Positions 5,035-43,708 of a stretch of 43,708 nt of DNA are shown piece after piece (the stretch's first letter is position 1; each line of letters begins with the position of its first letter). Source of the stretch: an uncultured Alphaproteobacteria bacterium (GTDB lineage Bacteria; Pseudomonadota; Alphaproteobacteria; RF32; CAG-239). Below the pieces are notes generated by a model. That model had not been told where the DNA came from. It did no database searches and saw only the letters and a list, made by a program, of their open reading frames with translations. Both the position numbers and the translations under genes were made by a program. The DNA is taken from assembly GCA_910585375.1 (NCBI GenBank), contig CAJUCZ010000009.1:22474-66181 (forward strand), written 5' to 3'.

Positions 5035-6384
5035 TTACATAAAGAACTCAATATAAACAAAAGCCGTTCCGATAAGCACGCTCAGCAACATTATCGGCAC
5101 CGACCACAACAAGAACTTCACAAAGCTGATCGGATGCCCTTCACGCATGGCCATACCGGCCACCACTACATTGGCCGAAGCACCGATAAGCGTTCCGTTT
5201 CCGCCAAAACAGGCCCCCAGCGACAAAGACCACCACACCGGCATCATAATGTCACGACCGCCAACAGATTCTTCCATAGACTTCAACATCGGAATCATCG
5301 TTGCCACAAACGGAATATTATCAATCACACTGGAGATAATTGCCGAACACCACAAAATCAGAAAGCTCAGTTTTGCAATGCTTCCGTCCGTCAACTCTAC
5401 AAACTTCTGTCCCAAATAAGCCAGCACGCCTGTCACTTCCAGACCATAAACAATAACAAACAAACCGGTAAAGAAAAAAATTGTAATCCAGTCAACCATA
5501 TTAAAAATTTCCTGAACCTTTCCGTCTTTTTCCTCACCTTGAGAACCGAAAGTATATAACAGCAGCAAAACGGCAGCACCAAGCAAAGCAATGGTACCGT
5601 TGTCCAGACCGATATGATGAGCCGAAATAAAGCCGGCAATCACACAGGCCAAAACCACCAAAGCTTTAACCAGCAAGCCCTTATCCGTAATCGCGTCATT
5701 AGGATTCATGGCCATTACTTTTTTCTTGCAATCATCTGTTGTCTTAAGCTGCACGCCCCAAAAGCGGTCAAAGATAAAAATAACCACAACCATGGTCACC
5801 GCAACAACGGGCGTCAGAACTTTTACAAAATCCATAAAACTCAGATTCAGGGCAGATCCGATCAAAATATTGGGAGGATCGCCGATAAGCGTTGCCGTTC
5901 CACCGATATTGGAAGAAAAAATCTCCAACAGAAGATACGGATAAGGATTGATTCTGAGTTTGCGCGTAATCTGAAAAGTTACCGGCGCAATCAGCAAAAC
6001 CGTGGTAACATTGTCCAGAAAACCGGAAAAAACAGCCGTAACAATCGCCAAAGCAGCCATCAGGCCGCGCGGGCTGGCTTTTACTTTTTTTGCCGACCAA
6101 ATTGCCACATACTGGAACATACCGGACTTTTCAGATACAGCCACAATAATCATCATGCCGATAAGCAGCGCCAATGTATTAAAATCAATTCCGGCCAATG
6201 CTTGCTTTTGCGACAAAATACCTGTCGCAATCATCACGCCGGCGCCAATCAGCGCAATAACGGCCCGGTTAACTTTCTCGGAAAAAATTATCAGATAACA
6301 AACCGCAACAATAATAATTGCGGCCAAAGAAGGCGGCATCCCTAAAATCAGGTTCGCGGCCTCGCCTGTATTCGTATTGAGCAT
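5035..6384 (-). CDS. ArsB/NhaD-superfamily anion permease (YbiR-like transporter)
   Basis: 449 aa and highly hydrophobic. The architecture is typical of this permease superfamily, with two repeated halves separated by a charged central loop. Confidence 0.5.
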   Translation of the reverse strand: MLNTNTGEAANLILGMPPSLAAIIIVAVCYLIIFSEKVNRAVIALIGAGVMIATGILSQKQALAGIDFNTLALLIGMMIIVAVSEKSGMFQYVAIWSAKKVKASPRGLMAALAIVTAVFSGFLDNVTTVLLIAPVTFQITRKLRINPYPYLLLEIFSSNIGGTATLIGDPPNILIGSALNLSFMDFVKVLTPVVAVTMVVVIFIFDRFWGVQLKTTDDCKKKVMAMNPNDAITDKGLLVKALVVLACVIAGFISAHHIGLDNGTIALLGAAVLLLLYTFGSQGEEKDGKVQEIFNMVDWITIFFFTGLFVIVYGLEVTGVLAYLGQKFVELTDGSIAKLSFLILWCSAIISSVIDNIPFVATMIPMLKSMEESVGGRDIMMPVWWSLSLGACFGGNGTLIGASANVVVAGMAMREGHPISFVKFLLWSVPIMLLSVLIGTAFVYIEFFM

Positions 6385-28923: not shown

Positions 28924-30825
28924 ATGGCAAAAAAATATTCGAATGGTAAATTAAACAAAGAAGTATATTATATGACATTATCCGATATTTTTAACAAATT
29001 TACCCCATTGGTCATTCCTGCGTATCAGAGAAGTTACTCTTGGGAAGATAAGCATATAAAAGATTTAAAACAGGATATAGAAGACATAAAGGAGTTTTCC
29101 AAAAAAGAACATTTTACAGGAACAATAGTTTTATCAGAAGACAAACATAAGTATTTAATTGTTGATGGACAACAAAGATTGACAAGTTTGTTTATCTTGC
29201 TGAAATCTATATATGATAGGACTAATGATCAAAATTTATTTGAGAACTATATCATTCAAAAAACAAATAATGATTCCCAAAGCAGACTGTCTACACAAAA
29301 TGATACAAATAATTTTTTTGAAGAATTTATCGTGGAGAACAATGTCAATATAGATGTCGAAATATATTCGCACAAAAGAATAAAAGCAGCAAAAATACAA
29401 TTCGACGAATGGATAAATAATAAACAATTACAAGAAATAAATGATATATTAGACATTATAACCAAGAGGCTAAAGTTTATTGTTTACAAACCCAATAATT
29501 ATTTAAACGCCCCGGCAATGTTCGAAATAATAAATAACAGAGGAAAAGATTTAAGCGAAATAGAAAAAATAAAAAATTATTTTGTATATATAGCAACTTC
29601 ACTGGGCGAAAATCATTCTTTGCACAAAAAAATAGCCGAATCTTGGGAAGGAATGCTTAAAAACTTAAACAGGGCAGATATTCATACTATTGAAGAGGAA
29701 AATAGCTTTTTGCGTGTTTGTTTTATCACTTTTTTCAGTTCAACTAAATTAAAATACCAGAACATATACAAAACATTAAAAGAGGAAATTTTCCCAATTA
29801 AAGCCTTTAGTCAAGAAAACACCAATACAAGCGATAAATTAATGAAGTTTCTTCGCTTTATACAAACGGCATCGAAATATTACTCATGTATCGTTAGATC
29901 AAGTAACTGTAACCCTATAATAAATCAACTTCCCAACACGACTAATTTACAGATTAAATATTTAGCTTGTCAAAAAAATACATCATCAATTACCCCTTTA
30001 TTTTTAGCCATAATGGCCAGAGATGATTTAACACAAATTGAACAAGATGAATTACTCAAATATTTGGAAATTTTAAATTTCAGAATGTATGTTTTACCAA
30101 GAGTATTAACTAGATCAGATAATGGCCAATCTGAGTTGTATACCATAGCTAATCAATTTTATGAAAAACTACTTTCAGTTGAAGAATTGAAAAATAAAAT
30201 GGTAAATATATCTCTTTCTTGGGTACCTATAACAAAATTTGTGGAAGCTATGAGTCTATCAGATGACGACACATATGATTTTGCAAGTTGGAGTGGATTG
30301 AAATATTTTTTTGCCAAATACGAAGAATACCTTGAAGATAACATAAATAAAACATTTGATGTCGCCTCAATTGAAAAAACAAGAAAAGACTGCAAAAGTG
30401 GAGATTATTTGTCTATTGAACATATATGGGCCCGAAAAAATAGATTACAATACGCTGCAGAAAATTATATCGCCAAAAGAAGACTTGGAAATTTAGTTCT
30501 TTTAGAATTAACCCCTAATATTTCTGCGGGAAATGAAGATATAGAAAAGAAATTAAACGAAGATAATGATATTGAAAGCCGAATTAGTATCATTGATAAA
30601 ACAAACTTACTTCAAGGAAAAGAACTAAAAAAAATTTTTTGTTCAGTATCTCAAAGACTAAAAAAGCTCCAAAGAAAAGGAAAATGGTATTATTGCAGCC
30701 AAGGTGAATACCTGGATGATGAACGTGAAAAAAAATTAATCAAGTTCGCAATTGACACATGGCATTTTCCCAATGAAAATACCAAAAAAGCAGAGAAATT
30801 ATTAGATGACAAGTTTAATAATTAA
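28924..30825 (+). CDS. GmrSD-like type IV restriction endonuclease (N-terminal DUF262 / C-terminal DUF1524)
   Basis: N-terminal DUF262 signatures (IPAYQRSYSWE, then LIVDGQQRLTSL). C-terminal DUF1524-like His-Me finger region (LSIEHIWARKN ... LGNLVLLE...N...GNE). The gene is much lower in GC than its flanks. Confidence 0.6.
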   Translation: MAKKYSNGKLNKEVYYMTLSDIFNKFTPLVIPAYQRSYSWEDKHIKDLKQDIEDIKEFSKKEHFTGTIVLSEDKHKYLIVDGQQRLTSLFILLKSIYDRTNDQNLFENYIIQKTNNDSQSRLSTQNDTNNFFEEFIVENNVNIDVEIYSHKRIKAAKIQFDEWINNKQLQEINDILDIITKRLKFIVYKPNNYLNAPAMFEIINNRGKDLSEIEKIKNYFVYIATSLGENHSLHKKIAESWEGMLKNLNRADIHTIEEENSFLRVCFITFFSSTKLKYQNIYKTLKEEIFPIKAFSQENTNTSDKLMKFLRFIQTASKYYSCIVRSSNCNPIINQLPNTTNLQIKYLACQKNTSSITPLFLAIMARDDLTQIEQDELLKYLEILNFRMYVLPRVLTRSDNGQSELYTIANQFYEKLLSVEELKNKMVNISLSWVPITKFVEAMSLSDDDTYDFASWSGLKYFFAKYEEYLEDNINKTFDVASIEKTRKDCKSGDYLSIEHIWARKNRLQYAAENYIAKRRLGNLVLLELTPNISAGNEDIEKKLNEDNDIESRISIIDKTNLLQGKELKKIFCSVSQRLKKLQRKGKWYYCSQGEYLDDEREKKLIKFAIDTWHFPNENTKKAEKLLDDKFNN

Positions 30826-30978: not shown

Positions 30979-31452
30979 ATGAAAAATATTCCTACCGTAT
31001 ATTTAATCTGTGGTTTTCTCGGAGCCGGAAAAACAACCTATTCTAAAAAGTTGACTCAAGAAACTGGTGCAATTCATCTAAACCCCGATGAAGTTTGTAT
31101 GTTAAGATACACTTCTGAAGAATATGAAACCAATTGGGATTTTTGTTTTGCACAAACGGTTGACTATCTTTGGCAAGAAATTGCTACTTATATCAAAAGA
31201 AATAAAGATGTTATCTTTGATATGGGTTTCTGGACTAAATTATCACGCGAACAAGCCATCAACAAAATCAAACAAATGGGCGGATATCCTATAATTTATT
31301 ATATCTACGCCCCTGATTCAGTCTTAAAACAAAGGCTGACAAAGAGAACCGGAAAAATTGCCGAACAAAATCTCTTACATTTCGATAGTATAAAAAAATC
31401 TTTTGAAGAACCTTCTCAAGAGGAAGTATTTATAACTGTTAAAAATTATTAA
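30979..31452 (+). CDS. Small P-loop NTPase/kinase (AAA_33 / zeta-toxin-like fold)
   Basis: Walker A motif GFLGAGKTT near the N-terminus. 157 aa. Confidence 0.5.
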   Translation: MKNIPTVYLICGFLGAGKTTYSKKLTQETGAIHLNPDEVCMLRYTSEEYETNWDFCFAQTVDYLWQEIATYIKRNKDVIFDMGFWTKLSREQAINKIKQMGGYPIIYYIYAPDSVLKQRLTKRTGKIAEQNLLHFDSIKKSFEEPSQEEVFITVKNY

Positions 31453-35888: not shown

Positions 35889-36121
35889 ATTATTGCTTTC
35901 ATCATAGCACAGTCAATATCGAAACGCAATAACTTTTGACAAAAATATTCATAAAAAAAAACATATTATTCTATTAAATATTTTTATTGATGTTTGAAAC
36001 CTCAAGTTTTTATCCTAAAATATCTACAATAACAATACTTTCCCAAAATAAATATTGACAAAACATAAAAAAGACATAAAATAAAAAAATATTATTTATT
36101 AAACTTTTATGTATATAAAAC

Positions 36122-42252: not shown

Positions 42253-42975
42253 ATGATAAGGCATAATTTTAATAAAAGGGGCAACACCATGCGAGTATTA
42301 CTTGTCGAAGACGATTACGCAATCTCCCAAAGCATTGAAACAATGCTCAAAAAAGAAGGCATGATTGTAGATACGACCGATCTGGGCGAAGACGGCCTTG
42401 AGATTGGCAAACTTTATGATTACGATATCATTATTCTGGACTTGATGCTTCCCGACATGAACGGCTATGAGGTCTTAAAAAGCCTGCGCGCCGCCAAAGT
42501 CAACACGCCGGTACTGATTCTGTCCGGCCTTTCCGAACCCGACAAAAAGGTCAAAGGTCTGGGCTATGGCGCCGACGACTATCTGACCAAACCGTTTGAC
42601 AAAGCCGAACTTCTGGCTCGAATCCAAGCGGTCGTCAGACGCTCGAAAGGGCATTCCAATTCCATTATCCGCACCGGCGAAGTCGAGGTCAATCTGGATA
42701 CACAGACTGTTACCGTCGGAACCAAAACGCTTCACCTGACCGGCAAAGAATACGGCATCATGGAATTGCTCTCCCTCAGAAAAGGCTCGACTCTAAACAA
42801 AGACCAGTTCTTAAACCACCTTTACGGCGGTATTGATGAACCGGAATTGAAAATTATCGATGTCTTTATCTGTAAACTCCGCAAGAAACTGGAAAAAGCT
42901 TCCGGCGGCAAGAACTACATCGAAACCGTCTGGGGCCGCGGCTATGTTCTCCGCGATCCGGATGAAAAAAAATAA
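42253..42975 (+). CDS. ctrA: Cell-cycle master response regulator CtrA (OmpR family)
   Basis: Near-collinear identity to Caulobacter CtrA as I remember it (MRVLL.EDD...DLGE.G...[57 protein letters not shown]...I.TG...VNLD..TV.V....HLTGKEY...[38 protein letters not shown].......[14 protein letters not shown]). The longest ORF carries a short N-terminal extension ([17 protein letters not shown]). Confidence 0.8.
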
Positions 42976-43002
42976 ATTTTTTACAATCAACGGACTTCAA
43001 AA

Positions 43003-43031
43003 AGCCTCTCCTTTACGGATGAGGCTTTTTT
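43003..43031 (+). terminator. Intrinsic terminator after ctrA
   Basis: Stem agcctc / gaggct with an internal tcc/gga extension, followed by TTTTT. Confidence 0.55.
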
Positions 43032-43708
43032 GCATTTCCGCCTTTTCCTCCTCTTATGCCTTCATCATCCCTGCCTTAATTTCTTTCCTCTAATCACTTC
43101 TCCACACTTCACTTTATTTTGCTATCTCTCCCTATATTTCTCTCCTGCATTCTCTCTCTTCAAACTCTAATCTTCTTCTCCTACATTTACATTATTCTGC
43201 CTGTTTTTTCTCATTTTACCCTTTGAGAATTTCTCCTTTTCCCATATACCCACTATTCCACTCTTTCTCTATTCTCCCTCTTCCGCCCCACACTTTACCC
43301 TTCCCTTCCTCTATTCATCAACCTTAATTTCTTCCCCACCCTCTTCCTCCTCACACTTTAGCCCTCCAAACTCATTCCCCTCCACTCTGCCATACTTCTC
43401 TCCTTAAACTCCTTTGGCCTTCCTTTCACCACTCACTTCATCTCTCTCCTGTCTTTTCTTTTATTCCCCTGCCACTCCTCACTTTGTCCCTCTCTTTTCA
43501 TCTCCTACCTTCTCCTTCTTTGCACAATCCGTTTCTTTCATCCCCTCCCCATTCTCCCTCACCCCAGCTTTTTCTCCCTTCACCTTTCTTCCCTTTTCCT
43601 CTTACTCTTTTTTCCTATCCTCTGCCCATAATACTTCCCTTTTTCTCTCCGCAGCCCCAATCTCCCTCTATCTTTTTTACACAATCATCTTTTCTCATCC
43701 CCGCCGTT
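43032..43708. other. Polypyrimidine (plus strand) / polypurine (minus strand) tract of at least 677 bp, G-depleted and non-repetitive, with no ORFs
   Basis: By eye, about 27 G in about 677 nt (about 4%). C+T is about 80%. There is no ATG on the plus strand. The minus strand has frequent stops. There is no tandem periodicity. The tract runs to the window edge. Confidence 0.85.

Follow-up and report, generated by a model that had tools for sequence, protein, structure and literature searches.

A non-coding, G-depleted pyrimidine-rich spacer between ctrA and a cysteine-rich secreted protein gene in an uncultured gut alphaproteobacterium, and its possible role as a transcriptional insulator

Directly downstream of a ctrA-type gene of an uncultured human-gut Alphaproteobacteria bacterium, the DNA turns into a long tract of C and T that contains hardly any G. 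The question raised by this locus is whether such a tract is genuine, to which of the neighboring genes it belongs, and whether it serves a function. The window, i.e., the whole stretch of DNA that was analyzed, is 43,708 nt long and ends within the tract. The following features were recognized at the start of the tract:

42289 to 42975, plus strand: ctrA-type response regulator gene (ORF of 228 aa; Pfam Response_reg and Trans_reg_C)
42999 to 43031, unstranded: intrinsic terminator of ctrA, AAAAA-GCCTCTCC-TTTAC-GGATGAGGC-TTTTTT
43032 to 43708, plus strand: the tract, pyrimidine-rich and G-depleted, as far as the window reaches (C 40%, T 42%, A 14%, G 3.8%), with about 250 nt more past the window edge

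The base composition of the tract in the window (A 0.140, C 0.400, G 0.038, T 0.421; C+T 82%) was unmatched in the remainder of the window (A.306, C.243, G.183, T.268), which confirms the G-depleted polypyrimidine tract that an earlier note had described behind the ctrA terminator. In 200-nt windows, the pyrimidine fraction averaged 0.516 (sd 0.065) over the full window and reached 0.77–0.86 in the tract, and none of the 200-nt windows outside the tract exceeded 0.68 when the whole window was scanned. The abrupt switch in composition claimed in that note was located immediately 3' of the T-run in the terminator hairpin, and purines interrupted the tract about once per 6 nt. The note had cautioned that the true length lay beyond the window edge, and the tract did run on, to a full length of 927 nt in the window's lineage (completed from contig L111) and to ~1.0 kb in allele L113. 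From the ctrA terminator it extends as far as the conserved box TAGCCAAAATC and, next to the box, a near-consensus sigma-70 promoter, an arrangement present in all alleles.

An assembly or chimeric artefact at the contig end might be suspected, given that the window stops inside the tract and that all ten contigs shown of its lineage (10/10) do so as well, 330–751 nt after ctrA. However, the tract was present at the same position in more than 20 independent gut-metagenome contigs from many samples, studies, and assemblers, all of which reproduced the junction, and it was identical or near-identical in L091–L097, with 0–6 differences between independent samples and assemblers. Contigs L111 (from a sample shared with L093) and L113 bridge the tract, reaching it from the opposite side and overlapping its known part. 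In the window, the overlap with L111 is as follows:

43626 to 43708, plus strand: 83-nt stretch that forms the start of contig L111; the exact overlap joins the window to the remaining tract, the promoter, and the cysteine-rich gene

Contig L111 contained ~250 nt of further tract before the promoter and the gene, and shorter alleles of the tract were bracketed by bacterial genes in L001–L005 and L010. The artefact that the earlier note wanted excluded is thus hardly conceivable, and the contig breaks are better explained by the low-complexity sequence, the internal duplicates, and the multi-copy cassette sequence. A eukaryotic or host chimera and a bisulfite-like conversion artefact were both ruled out by the composition (A only 14%) and by the flanking bacterial genes.

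The earlier claim that no frame of the tract is open did not hold, as one plus-strand frame was open for 127 codons up to the window edge, and one plus-strand frame of the completed tract for 207 codons. The plus strand is poor in stop codons from its composition, with an expected mean open stretch of 78 codons; the ORFs on the minus strand were 34–68 aa at most. The plus-strand open frames had no Shine-Dalgarno sequence and no conserved frame among the alleles compared, and were disrupted by between-allele indels of 160, 52, 43, and 7 nt. The tract is therefore non-coding; a protein-coding role was rejected, the open frames being a matter of stop-codon scarcity and unconserved among alleles. 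The locus thus carries a non-coding, pyrimidine-rich, G-depleted spacer of 0.93–1.0 kb.

The promoter past the tract (TTGACA-17-TGnTATAGT) drives a gene for a cysteine-rich secreted protein of ~495 aa, a member of a large, paralogous, multi-copy family. The box, promoter, leader, and signal peptide of this gene recurred at unrelated loci in L101, L104, L107, L108 (2 copies), L116, L117, L119, L121, L123, and L124. Every paralog carried a pyrimidine-rich run left of the TAGCCAAAATC box, with lengths of 8–13, ~45, or 147 nt at the other loci; the run of 147 nt, located after an ABC-F gene in L121, was a homologous tract that aligned to tract types A and B with scores of 47 and 51, above the shuffle maxima of 42. 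The tract is hence a hugely expanded form of the pyrimidine-rich run of the cassette, and because this run accompanies the cassette elsewhere, as after the ABC-F gene in L121, it is neither an appendage nor a 3'UTR of ctrA. Furthermore, a strong hairpin terminator was located directly before all other paralog cassettes, which indicates that the paralogs are generally insulated against transcription entering from upstream. The ctrA terminator was conserved in all tract alleles, and its fold energy (-16.7 kcal/mol) was comparable to that of the terminators before other paralog cassettes; flanked by an A-run and, at the opposite end, a T-run, it can work in both directions. The idea of a weak ctrA terminator in need of a Rho back-up was rejected, since the hairpin is as stable as those of the other cassettes.

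One paralog, linked to flgI, was captured in both orientations (L108 and L109), and its promoter-plus-leader segment is invertible between short flanking inverted repeats, the pyrimidine run being the left inverted repeat of the promoter. The crossover lies in TTTTCTTT/AAAGAAAA, immediately left of the box, and involves a 13-nt inverted repeat (TTTTCTTTAGCCA / TGACGAAAGAAAA). Pairs with pyrimidines on the left and purines on the right (the ATAAAGAAAAG module) recurred in L113, L117, L119, and L121. At the ctrA locus, by comparison, no inverted repeat exceeded chance (only weak ones of 13–14 nt with 79–85% identity were present), no inverted state was seen, every promoter-reaching contig having the promoter facing the gene, and neither a recombinase nor rho was present among ten of the larger ORFs of the window.

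The tract might be viewed as a protein-binding or recombination field, composed of degenerate copies of the left-end sites (the pyrimidine inverted repeat plus the TAGCCAAAATC box) that bind an invertase or a regulator. Such a field could tune the switching frequency, provide alternative crossovers, or stem from repeated abortive recombination of the left repeat. The position of the L108/L109 crossover beside the box, its 13-nt repeat, and the recurring ATAAAGAAAAG-module pairs are consistent with this, as are the box-like fragments CTTTAGCCC and CTTTAGCCG, the doubled boxes (the box of L116 is itself doubled), and the decayed cassette copy within tracts (see below). The G residues of the tract also favored a YGC context, 29 of 41 preceding C against 17 expected. 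On the other hand, no periodic unit was visible around these rare G residues, the exact TTTTCTTT was seen once where ~0.8 occurrences are expected (hand estimate), in no contig was any segment of the tract inverted so as to read as purines, and the ten larger window ORFs provided no recombinase beside the locus. We consider such a field unlikely.

The distribution of the tract was narrow. The CtrA protein was 100% identical across L001–L010. Sister lineages had tracts of 173–306 nt (173, 215, and 306 nt), including a type C allele that lost the downstream gene and retained 173 nt of tract. No tract was found after ctrA in other genera at the 80 loci from the contig scan, where CtrA was 72–99% identical (82–99% in the 53 gut and rumen relatives L011–L063), the DNA was ~72% identical, and the downstream genes differed. 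As to the conservation in relatives that the earlier note proposed to examine, the position of the tract is kept in the clade, and other genera have no tract. No comparable intergenic C-rich, G-poor stretch was present in 869 kb of related genomes, and a general termination style of the clade was rejected, since nothing comparable stood at other gene ends there. The primary sequence of the tract was not conserved between sister lineages.

Within the tract, Tandem Repeats Finder (minimum score 30) detected no tandem array, so that its description as non-repetitive stands, with one short internal duplication in the window part. Three features in the window bear on how the tract changes:

43276 to 43367, plus strand: internal local duplication of 29-nt copies (43276–43304 and 43339–43367), spacing 63 nt, 86% identical
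43424 to 43465, plus strand: indel-polymorphic segment; the version in L091, L093, and L094 is 18 nt longer and locally rewritten
43610 to 43633, plus strand: decayed cassette copy (TTTTCCTATC-CTCTGCCCATAATA), a copy of the conserved segment that joins the TAGCCAAAATC box to the -35 hexamer

The diagonal of the duplication scored 17, where shuffles averaged 13.7 (sd 1.5, maximum 19), and two stronger duplications were located past the window (scores of 24 and 21, spacing of 59 and 95 nt); the internal duplications of the tract thus surpass those of shuffled sequence. The decayed copy had a local alignment score of 37, above all 300 dinucleotide shuffles (mean 22.9, maximum 36), and the doubled box of L116 likewise speaks for growth by duplication. 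Alleles of types A and B differed by indels of 160 and 52 nt with TTTTTCCGCCC and ATTTTCTCCC at their flanks, and L091 and L094 had no substitution in 4422 nt of flanking genes (0/4422), yet showed a complex indel difference in the tract. The tract is therefore an indel hotspot in which indel turnover outpaces point substitution in the flanks. These results show in part that it arose, and still changes, as short direct repeats give rise to local duplications and deletions, events that would represent slippage or unequal exchange.

Such instability raises the possibility that the tract is a functionless by-product, "cryptically simple" DNA that formed when the pyrimidine-rich left end of the cassette underwent runaway slippage or unequal recombination. 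The left end would be the terminator U-tract, the left inverted repeat, or the box region; the composition would be inherited from this seed without selection, and the tract tolerated between two terminated transcription units. The wide variation among close lineages (173, 215, 306, and 927 nt, and ~1.0 kb in L113), the short direct repeats that flank indels, the internal duplications with the decayed cassette copy, and the rapid indel turnover all agree with this, and 8–45 nt are enough at other paralog loci. The seed segment from the box to the -35 is already C-rich and G-poor, the excess of A over G among the purines (12% vs. 4%) would fit the usual mutational decay of a pyrimidine run, and motifs, mirror repeats, and G-quadruplexes are all within the expectation from composition. 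However, C remained at 40–45% and G at 4–7.5% in five alleles that could barely be aligned, whereas the other non-ORF DNA of the window has 35% G+C, and an AT-biased mutation process should erode this composition unless turnover is very fast or the composition is selected. It could descend from the C-rich, G-poor segment between box and promoter and be kept by fast duplication turnover without selection. The tract was nevertheless kept in every strain of the clade seen, in type C even without the downstream gene, and the RNA of an unselected tract would still be a substrate for Rho whenever transcribed. A by-product is a serious possibility, and somewhat short of our preferred explanation (below).

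Several roles proposed in the earlier note depend on structure or on motifs. A DNA-structure element (H-DNA/triplex or i-motif/G-quadruplex) that modulates the adjacent promoter or stalls replication would draw on the strong purine/pyrimidine strand asymmetry and on one canonical G-quadruplex motif (minus strand, complement of 43541–43564). H-DNA needs mirror symmetry, and the longest perfect pyrimidine mirror arm was 7 nt, no better than the 7.8–8.4 nt of shuffled sequences, which does not support the triplex proposed earlier. The longest pure pyrimidine runs, of 21 nt within the window and 29 nt over the whole tract, did not exceed those of the shuffles (27.5 and 31 nt) either, purines occurring every ~6 nt, and the single G-quadruplex motif compares with 0.3–0.9 expected, with no obvious conservation in other alleles (by eye). 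A DNA-structure element is thus very unlikely; the composition by itself may make leftward transcription prone to R-loops.

A regulatory RNA is less probable still. It would be either a minus-strand RNA, rich in A and G, that sponges CsrA-like proteins or 30S subunits, or a CU-rich 3'UTR of ctrA that is stable and bound by S1, Hfq, or ProQ. In the window part, the minus strand contained 44 GGA and 11 AGGAG motifs, and the plus strand contained many CUCC motifs. The motif count suggested in the earlier note, on whose outcome it let the sponge proposal depend, was carried out, and the numbers of GGA, AGGAG, AAGGAG, GGAGG, and CCTCC all equaled those of mono- and dinucleotide-matched shuffles (|z| <=1.63; GGA 44 vs. 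44.0 +/- 4.2, AGGAG z = 1.3), so that the sponge fails by the measure that the note itself had set. The minus-strand RNA was predicted to be nearly unfolded (-0.043 kcal/mol per nt), without the GGA-displaying hairpins of CsrB and RsmY. A promoter scan revealed no promoter-like site on either strand of the window part, Rfam gave no match in L111, L001, or L108 apart from one tRNA, and sister lineages have no conserved primary sequence. As regards the 3'UTR, the read-through RNA would indeed be CU-rich and unstructured, but the tract is part of the downstream cassette rather than of ctrA. Among the proposals of the note, this CU-rich read-through comes closest to the evidence; its best-established consequence would be Rho loading and termination, not a stable 3'UTR bound by S1, Hfq, or ProQ.

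The explanation that we favor, tentatively and with less than even confidence, is that slippage gave rise to the tract as a spacer, which shields the variable gene against read-through from ctrA, and judging from its sequence it is probably a one-way stop for stray transcription. A rightward transcript that passes the ctrA terminator would be C-rich, G-poor, untranslated, and essentially unfolded over ~900 nt, which would make it an extreme putative Rho-loading (rut) substrate. Rho would end such read-through transcripts ahead of the variable gene, and expression of the gene would therefore be set by its own promoter alone. A rut site is expected to contain more C than G over at least 70–80 nt, with C or YC dinucleotides frequent and regularly available (PMC6407284). 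No 78-nt window of the tract had fewer than 20 C or more than 5 G (on average 31 C and 2.7 G), so that C/G never fell below 5.0, and YC dinucleotides occurred 32 times per 100 nt. The 927-nt sense RNA had a predicted minimum free energy of -13.2 kcal/mol (-0.014 per nt), as compared with -0.29 and -0.35 per nt for the ctrA and fliI mRNAs. The tract thus has the three rut properties tested, i.e., C > G with frequent YC, unstructured RNA, and absence of translation. The rho gene is near-universal in Alphaproteobacteria and is assumed to be present in this genome.

By a weaker inference, transcription in the leftward direction would yield a purine- and G-rich RNA from a pyrimidine template, favoring an R-loop-mediated block that would keep antisense transcription away from ctrA. 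What would drive transcription leftward is hypothetical, because the ctrA locus has neither an inverted orientation nor an above-chance inverted repeat. Two further points speak against the insulator. A back-up terminator is not obviously needed, because the ctrA terminator is not weak (-16.7 kcal/mol), and a Rho function leaves the length of 930 nt unaccounted for, since ~80–100 nt are enough for Rho. The length beyond ~100 nt is probably not selected, and the excess more likely reflects how unstable low-complexity DNA is. A bolder version, which we regard as doubtful, is a selected strand-asymmetric insulator of an undescribed phase-variable gene system of gut Alphaproteobacteria, which would combine a Rho platform in one direction with an R-loop block in the other and the left site of an invertase with spare pseudo-sites, its length, which varies more quickly than point mutations accrue, tuning leakiness or switching of the cysteine-rich gene beside the essential regulator ctrA.

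Rho-dependent termination is coupled to invertible switches in E. coli fimE/fimS and in C. difficile flgB (PMC12360218). As in these rut regions, the sense RNA of the tract would be C-rich, G-poor, unstructured, and untranslated, and placed to end transcripts beside a phase-variable promoter family (PMC6407284; PMC12360218). In contrast, it has ~10 times the length needed and a C/G of at least 5 everywhere and ~10 overall, whereas C/G averages 1.6 in predicted E. coli rut sites (PMC6407284); it also follows a competent intrinsic terminator, and inversion was seen only at a paralog, not at the ctrA locus. A G-rich homopurine sequence on the non-template strand blocks transcription through R-loops, with an effect that depends on orientation (PMC3561996), and a leftward transcript of the tract would have such a G-rich (42% G) non-template strand in the blocking orientation. 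The data of Belotserkovskii et al. (PMC3561996) were obtained in vitro with T7 RNA polymerase and short, pure G-rich inserts, whereas the purine strand of the tract is half A with ~16% pyrimidine interruptions and its leftward promoter is hypothetical.

Contingency tracts and invertons offer two other comparisons. The CTCTT coding repeats of the Neisseria opa genes are a polypyrimidine contingency tract. The tract at the ctrA locus similarly has its pyrimidine strand beside a variable surface or secreted protein gene and shows slippage-type length instability; it differs in having no perfect or near-perfect short tandem repeat (0 Tandem Repeats Finder arrays) and in ending >60 nt upstream of the -35. 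As it lies outside both the reading frame and the promoter spacer, a change in its length cannot act as a switch of the classical kind. The cassette family also resembles invertons such as the Bacteroides capsule promoters and fimS, in that a promoter-plus-leader segment is flanked by short inverted repeats, occurs in both orientations at one paralog, and precedes genes for secreted or surface-type proteins in a gut organism. Unlike in these systems, the tract lies outside the inverted segment, the repeats are a pyrimidine/purine pair of only 8–13 nt, and the host is an alphaproteobacterium.

These results indicate that the tract is real, lineage-specific, and fast-evolving, and kilobase-long, non-repetitive, near-G-free polypyrimidine DNA is very unusual in bacteria. 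A practical lesson is that short-read assemblies break at the tract in all samples of the window's lineage. Should the tract prove to be a Rho-loading insulator, we know of no natural rut region as extreme, and it would be a handy model for how much C-rich, G-poor RNA Rho needs. The gene beside it belongs to a large and unannotated family of cysteine-rich secreted proteins of human-gut and rumen Alphaproteobacteria that share a promoter cassette, with at least one invertible promoter, which suggests that this uncultured and poorly known gut lineage undergoes phase variation.

The tract downstream of ctrA is real and non-coding, and represents a rapidly changing expansion of the left, pyrimidine-rich end of a promoter cassette belonging to a family of cysteine-rich secreted proteins. 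The features of the locus, in the window and in retrieved metagenome contigs (L numbers), are as follows:

42289-42975, plus strand: CtrA-type response regulator gene (228 aa), with a terminator downstream at 42999-43031
43032-43708, plus strand: window part of the tract, from base composition
43610-43633: decayed copy of the cassette's box-to-promoter segment (score 37 versus a maximum of 36 in 300 shuffles)
L001:11285-12778, L111:470-1957, L003:6378-7871: cysteine-rich protein gene, just past the window edge
L001:11150-11180, L003:6210-6300: GC-rich palindromic modules in leaders

Upstream of the tract lie pgk, gap, sodB, fliJ, and fliI on the minus strand, followed by ctrA on the plus strand, and ten further ORFs among the larger ones in the window were ordinary chromosomal genes. 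The tract began abruptly at the T-run end of the hairpin terminator and contained 14.0% A, 40.0% C, 3.8% G, and 42.1% T, compared with 30.6, 24.3, 18.3, and 26.8% in the rest of the window. The pyrimidine fraction in 200-nt windows averaged 0.516 (sd 0.065) over the whole window, reached 0.77-0.86 in the tract, and exceeded 0.68 nowhere else in the window. Composition and boundary agree with the earlier note, which had described about 80% C+T and about 4% G directly after the ctrA terminator. Tandem Repeats Finder returned no array. The window's other compositional outlier, a 206-nt intergenic region at 35913-36118 (17% G+C, 5% G), was AT-rich, not pyrimidine-rich. The window also contained a GmrSD-type restriction endonuclease gene (entry coordinates 28924-30825 and 30979-31452), beside which a zeta-toxin-domain gene was found in a contig matching the window (L091:12275-12969); these genes form a small defence or addiction cluster ~12 kb from ctrA.

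An exact CtrA protein look-up retrieved ten human-gut metagenome contigs (L001-L010) with flanks 91-96% identical to the window, all of which harbored at this position a tract rich in C+T and poor in G. An exact FliI protein look-up retrieved ten contigs from the lineage of the window itself (L091-L100), which showed 0-6 differences and one complex 18-nt indel relative to the window in the overlapping parts; each ended within the tract, 330-751 nt past ctrA. Short-read assembly likely breaks here because of low complexity, internal duplicates, and multi-copy downstream sequence. L111, from the same sample as L093, started with the window's last 83 nt and added ~250 nt of tract before the promoter, the gene, and a convergent SIMPL gene, so that the far boundary sought by the earlier note was reached. 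The completed tract spans 927 nt (C 42.5%, T 41.0%, A 12.1%, G 4.4%), and further insertions bring the L113 allele to ~1.0 kb. The same-position tracts, the agreement within the window lineage, and the extension past the window edge make a chimera or contig-end assembly artefact an unlikely source of the tract.

The tract had been described as lacking any ORF, which is true in function but not in the letter: frames were open for 127 codons up to the window edge and 207 codons in the completed tract, but they had no ribosome-binding sites and were disrupted by the indels that set alleles apart. The long open plus-strand frames result from a composition in which stop codons are nearly absent (expected mean open stretch, 78 codons). 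A DNA-structural role such as H-DNA is unlikely, because the longest perfect pyrimidine mirror arm (7 nt) and the pure pyrimidine runs (21-29 nt) did not exceed those of shuffles, and G-quadruplexes were not enriched (one motif only). Similarly, a sponge RNA built on GGA, AGGAG, AAGGAG, and GGAGG (minus strand) or on anti-Shine-Dalgarno-like CCTCC, CTCC, and TCC (plus strand) is unlikely, since motif counts matched composition-matched shuffles (|z| up to 1.63), an outcome that the earlier note had itself named as refuting. No promoter-like sites were detected on either strand of the window part of the tract, and no Rfam matches were obtained.

On the 3' side of the tract, all alleles carried, in order, the conserved box TAGCCAAAATC, a promoter, a leader, and the gene for a 495-497 aa protein; in type C alleles of sister lineages (L002, L004, L005, L010), the gene was lost and a 173-nt tract and decayed promoter were kept. 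The promoter was near-consensus (TTGACA, 17 nt, TG-extended TATAGT; 11/12 matches). The protein has a signal peptide and many cysteines, and matched no Pfam family. A protein collection contained 241 relatives from uncultured Alphaproteobacteria of the gut and rumen, with several paralogs per MAG. Conservation covers the N-terminal two thirds, including many invariant cysteines, and the C-terminal third is variable. The same cassette was found at unrelated loci, with neighbours including flgI, lepA, tyrS, an ABC-F gene, and a serine dehydratase gene. It opens with a hairpin terminator, which is followed by a run rich in pyrimidines and the TAGCCAAAATC box; next come the promoter and a leader that contains many GC-rich palindromes, then a module rich in purines (ATAAAGAAAAG or AAAGAAAAAAAG), a Shine-Dalgarno sequence, and a conserved signal peptide. 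Two members (L118:2400-2520, L127:880-1012) lacked box and promoter, with the leader beginning at CCTGCACGGCAGG directly after the upstream gene, and may be silent or promoter-less copies. GC-rich palindromic modules of variable number (e.g., GTCATTCTCGGGCTTGACCCGAGAATCC, GGATTGCCGGATCAAGTCCGGCAATGAC) occurred in the leaders of L101, L104, L108, and L114-L117. The L003 leader contained a ~90-nt insertion bounded by AGCACTGTGC that was not in L001, which is REP/MITE-like behaviour. The interval that separates the cysteine-rich gene from the convergent SIMPL gene contained 2-3 direct repeats of ~120 nt (L001:12860-13120, L111:2020-2240), each terminating in a copy of the SIMPL 3' end (...GATGCCGCTTTAGCA); these repeats resemble scars left by recurrent insertion or recombination at the cassette's right end. 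L115:1-37 is a Nextera transposase adapter (…AGATGTGTATAAGAGACAG), a library artefact at the contig end.

Length of the pyrimidine-rich run across loci
L101, L107, L108 (two copies), L124: 8-13 nt
L104, L116 (doubled box), L117, L119: about 45 nt
L121 (after ABC-F gene): 147 nt
ctrA locus, sister lineages, types C, B, and A: 173, 215, and 306 nt
ctrA locus, window lineage: 927 nt to ~1.0 kb

The L121 tract, which follows an ABC-F gene, aligned to types A and B better than 100 of 100 shuffles, so the tract goes with the cassette and not with ctrA. In other genera, no tract followed ctrA, the genes there differed, and 869 kb of their DNA contained no comparable intergenic stretch. Another species carried a palindromic repeat cluster after ctrA (L038:10760-11230) with AAGGGGAGGAAT / CCTCCCCTT units, including three tandem 32-nt copies. 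In type A strains, a large serine recombinase (554 aa, Resolvase and Recombinase domains, tRNA adjacent; L001:1-1320, also L006 and L008) was encoded ~9 kb upstream of ctrA, and was not at that position in the window lineage; it is probably an integrated element.

Types A and B differed by 160-nt and 52-nt indels bordered by the direct repeats TTTTTCCGCCC and ATTTTCTCCC. The completed tract contained three internal duplications (scores 24, 21, and 17; spacings 59, 95, and 63 nt), of which the first two exceeded all 60 dinucleotide shuffles (mean 13.7, maximum 19) and the third lay more than two sd above the mean but below the maximum. Across 4422 nt of flanking genes, L091 and L094 showed 0 substitutions, yet inside the tract they differed by a segment that was rewritten and 18 nt longer. 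The tract is thus a hotspot for duplications and deletions of the slippage type, and its turnover outpaces point mutation in the flanks; it was nonetheless identical between unrelated human samples.

One family gene (P0004), with an identical flgI operon downstream, was present in both L108 and L109, but the segment of 316 nt that holds promoter and leader was inverted between the two assemblies (L108:5643-5958 versus L109:1-316). The crossover lay within TTTTCTTT/AAAGAAAA, and the inverted repeat was an imperfect 13 nt (TTTTCTTTAGCCA / TGACGAAAGAAAA). Therefore, the family has at least one invertible promoter, with the pyrimidine run left of the box as its left repeat. This assembly comparison provides evidence that phase variation occurs in this family of alphaproteobacterial genes; the literature searched contained no account of invertible promoters from these gut Alphaproteobacteria. 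L107 and L108 were identical in the cysteine-rich gene and downstream flagellar genes and differed completely upstream (tyrS side versus lepA side), with the breakpoint at the promoter cassette (upstream of position 5640 in each), reflecting either cassette rearrangement across loci or repeat-induced misassembly.

A Rho-loading site is defined as at least 70-80 nt of C-rich, G-poor, unstructured, ribosome-free RNA (PMC6407284; PMC12360218). The plus-strand RNA of the tract is 42% C and 4% G, with a predicted folding energy of -13.2 kcal/mol over 927 nt, per nucleotide ~twenty-fold weaker than that predicted for ctrA or fliI mRNA. All of its 78-nt windows had a C/G ratio of at least 5, whereas the mean for predicted E. 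coli rut sites is 1.6, with few above 3 (PMC6407284). Each of five alleles that can barely be aligned maintained 40-45% C and 4-7.5% G, while other non-ORF DNA of the window had only 35% G+C. The tentatively favoured reading is that the tract is a slippage-born spacer that may behave as a Rho-dependent insulator: transcripts escaping the ctrA terminator would load Rho on the tract RNA and be stopped ahead of the variable gene. Such a stop would fit the strong terminators immediately upstream of every other family cassette. It would also be consistent with fimS and C. difficile flgB, two invertible switches that are known to be coupled to Rho termination (PMC12360218). On the other hand, the terminator of ctrA is strong in itself (-16.7 kcal/mol), Rho would need no more than ~100 nt, and the composition could have been inherited from a seed rich in C and maintained by rapid turnover through duplication. 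These points argue against a selected function, and a tract that is a pure by-product is nearly as likely. Ranked next, a binding field for a recombinase or regulator is improbable. Leftward transcription would produce a purine- and G-rich nascent RNA on a pyrimidine template, the orientation of R-loop transcription blocks in vitro (PMC3561996); however, the ctrA locus showed neither a leftward promoter nor an inverted state.

Bacterial polypyrimidine tracts that are kilobase-sized, non-repetitive, and depleted in G were not described in the literature searched. The properties of this one map onto known kinds, namely a rut region, low-complexity slippage DNA, and an inverton flank. The tract is of note for its extremity and for the gene system it points to, a multi-copy and at least partly phase-variable family of cysteine-rich secreted proteins.
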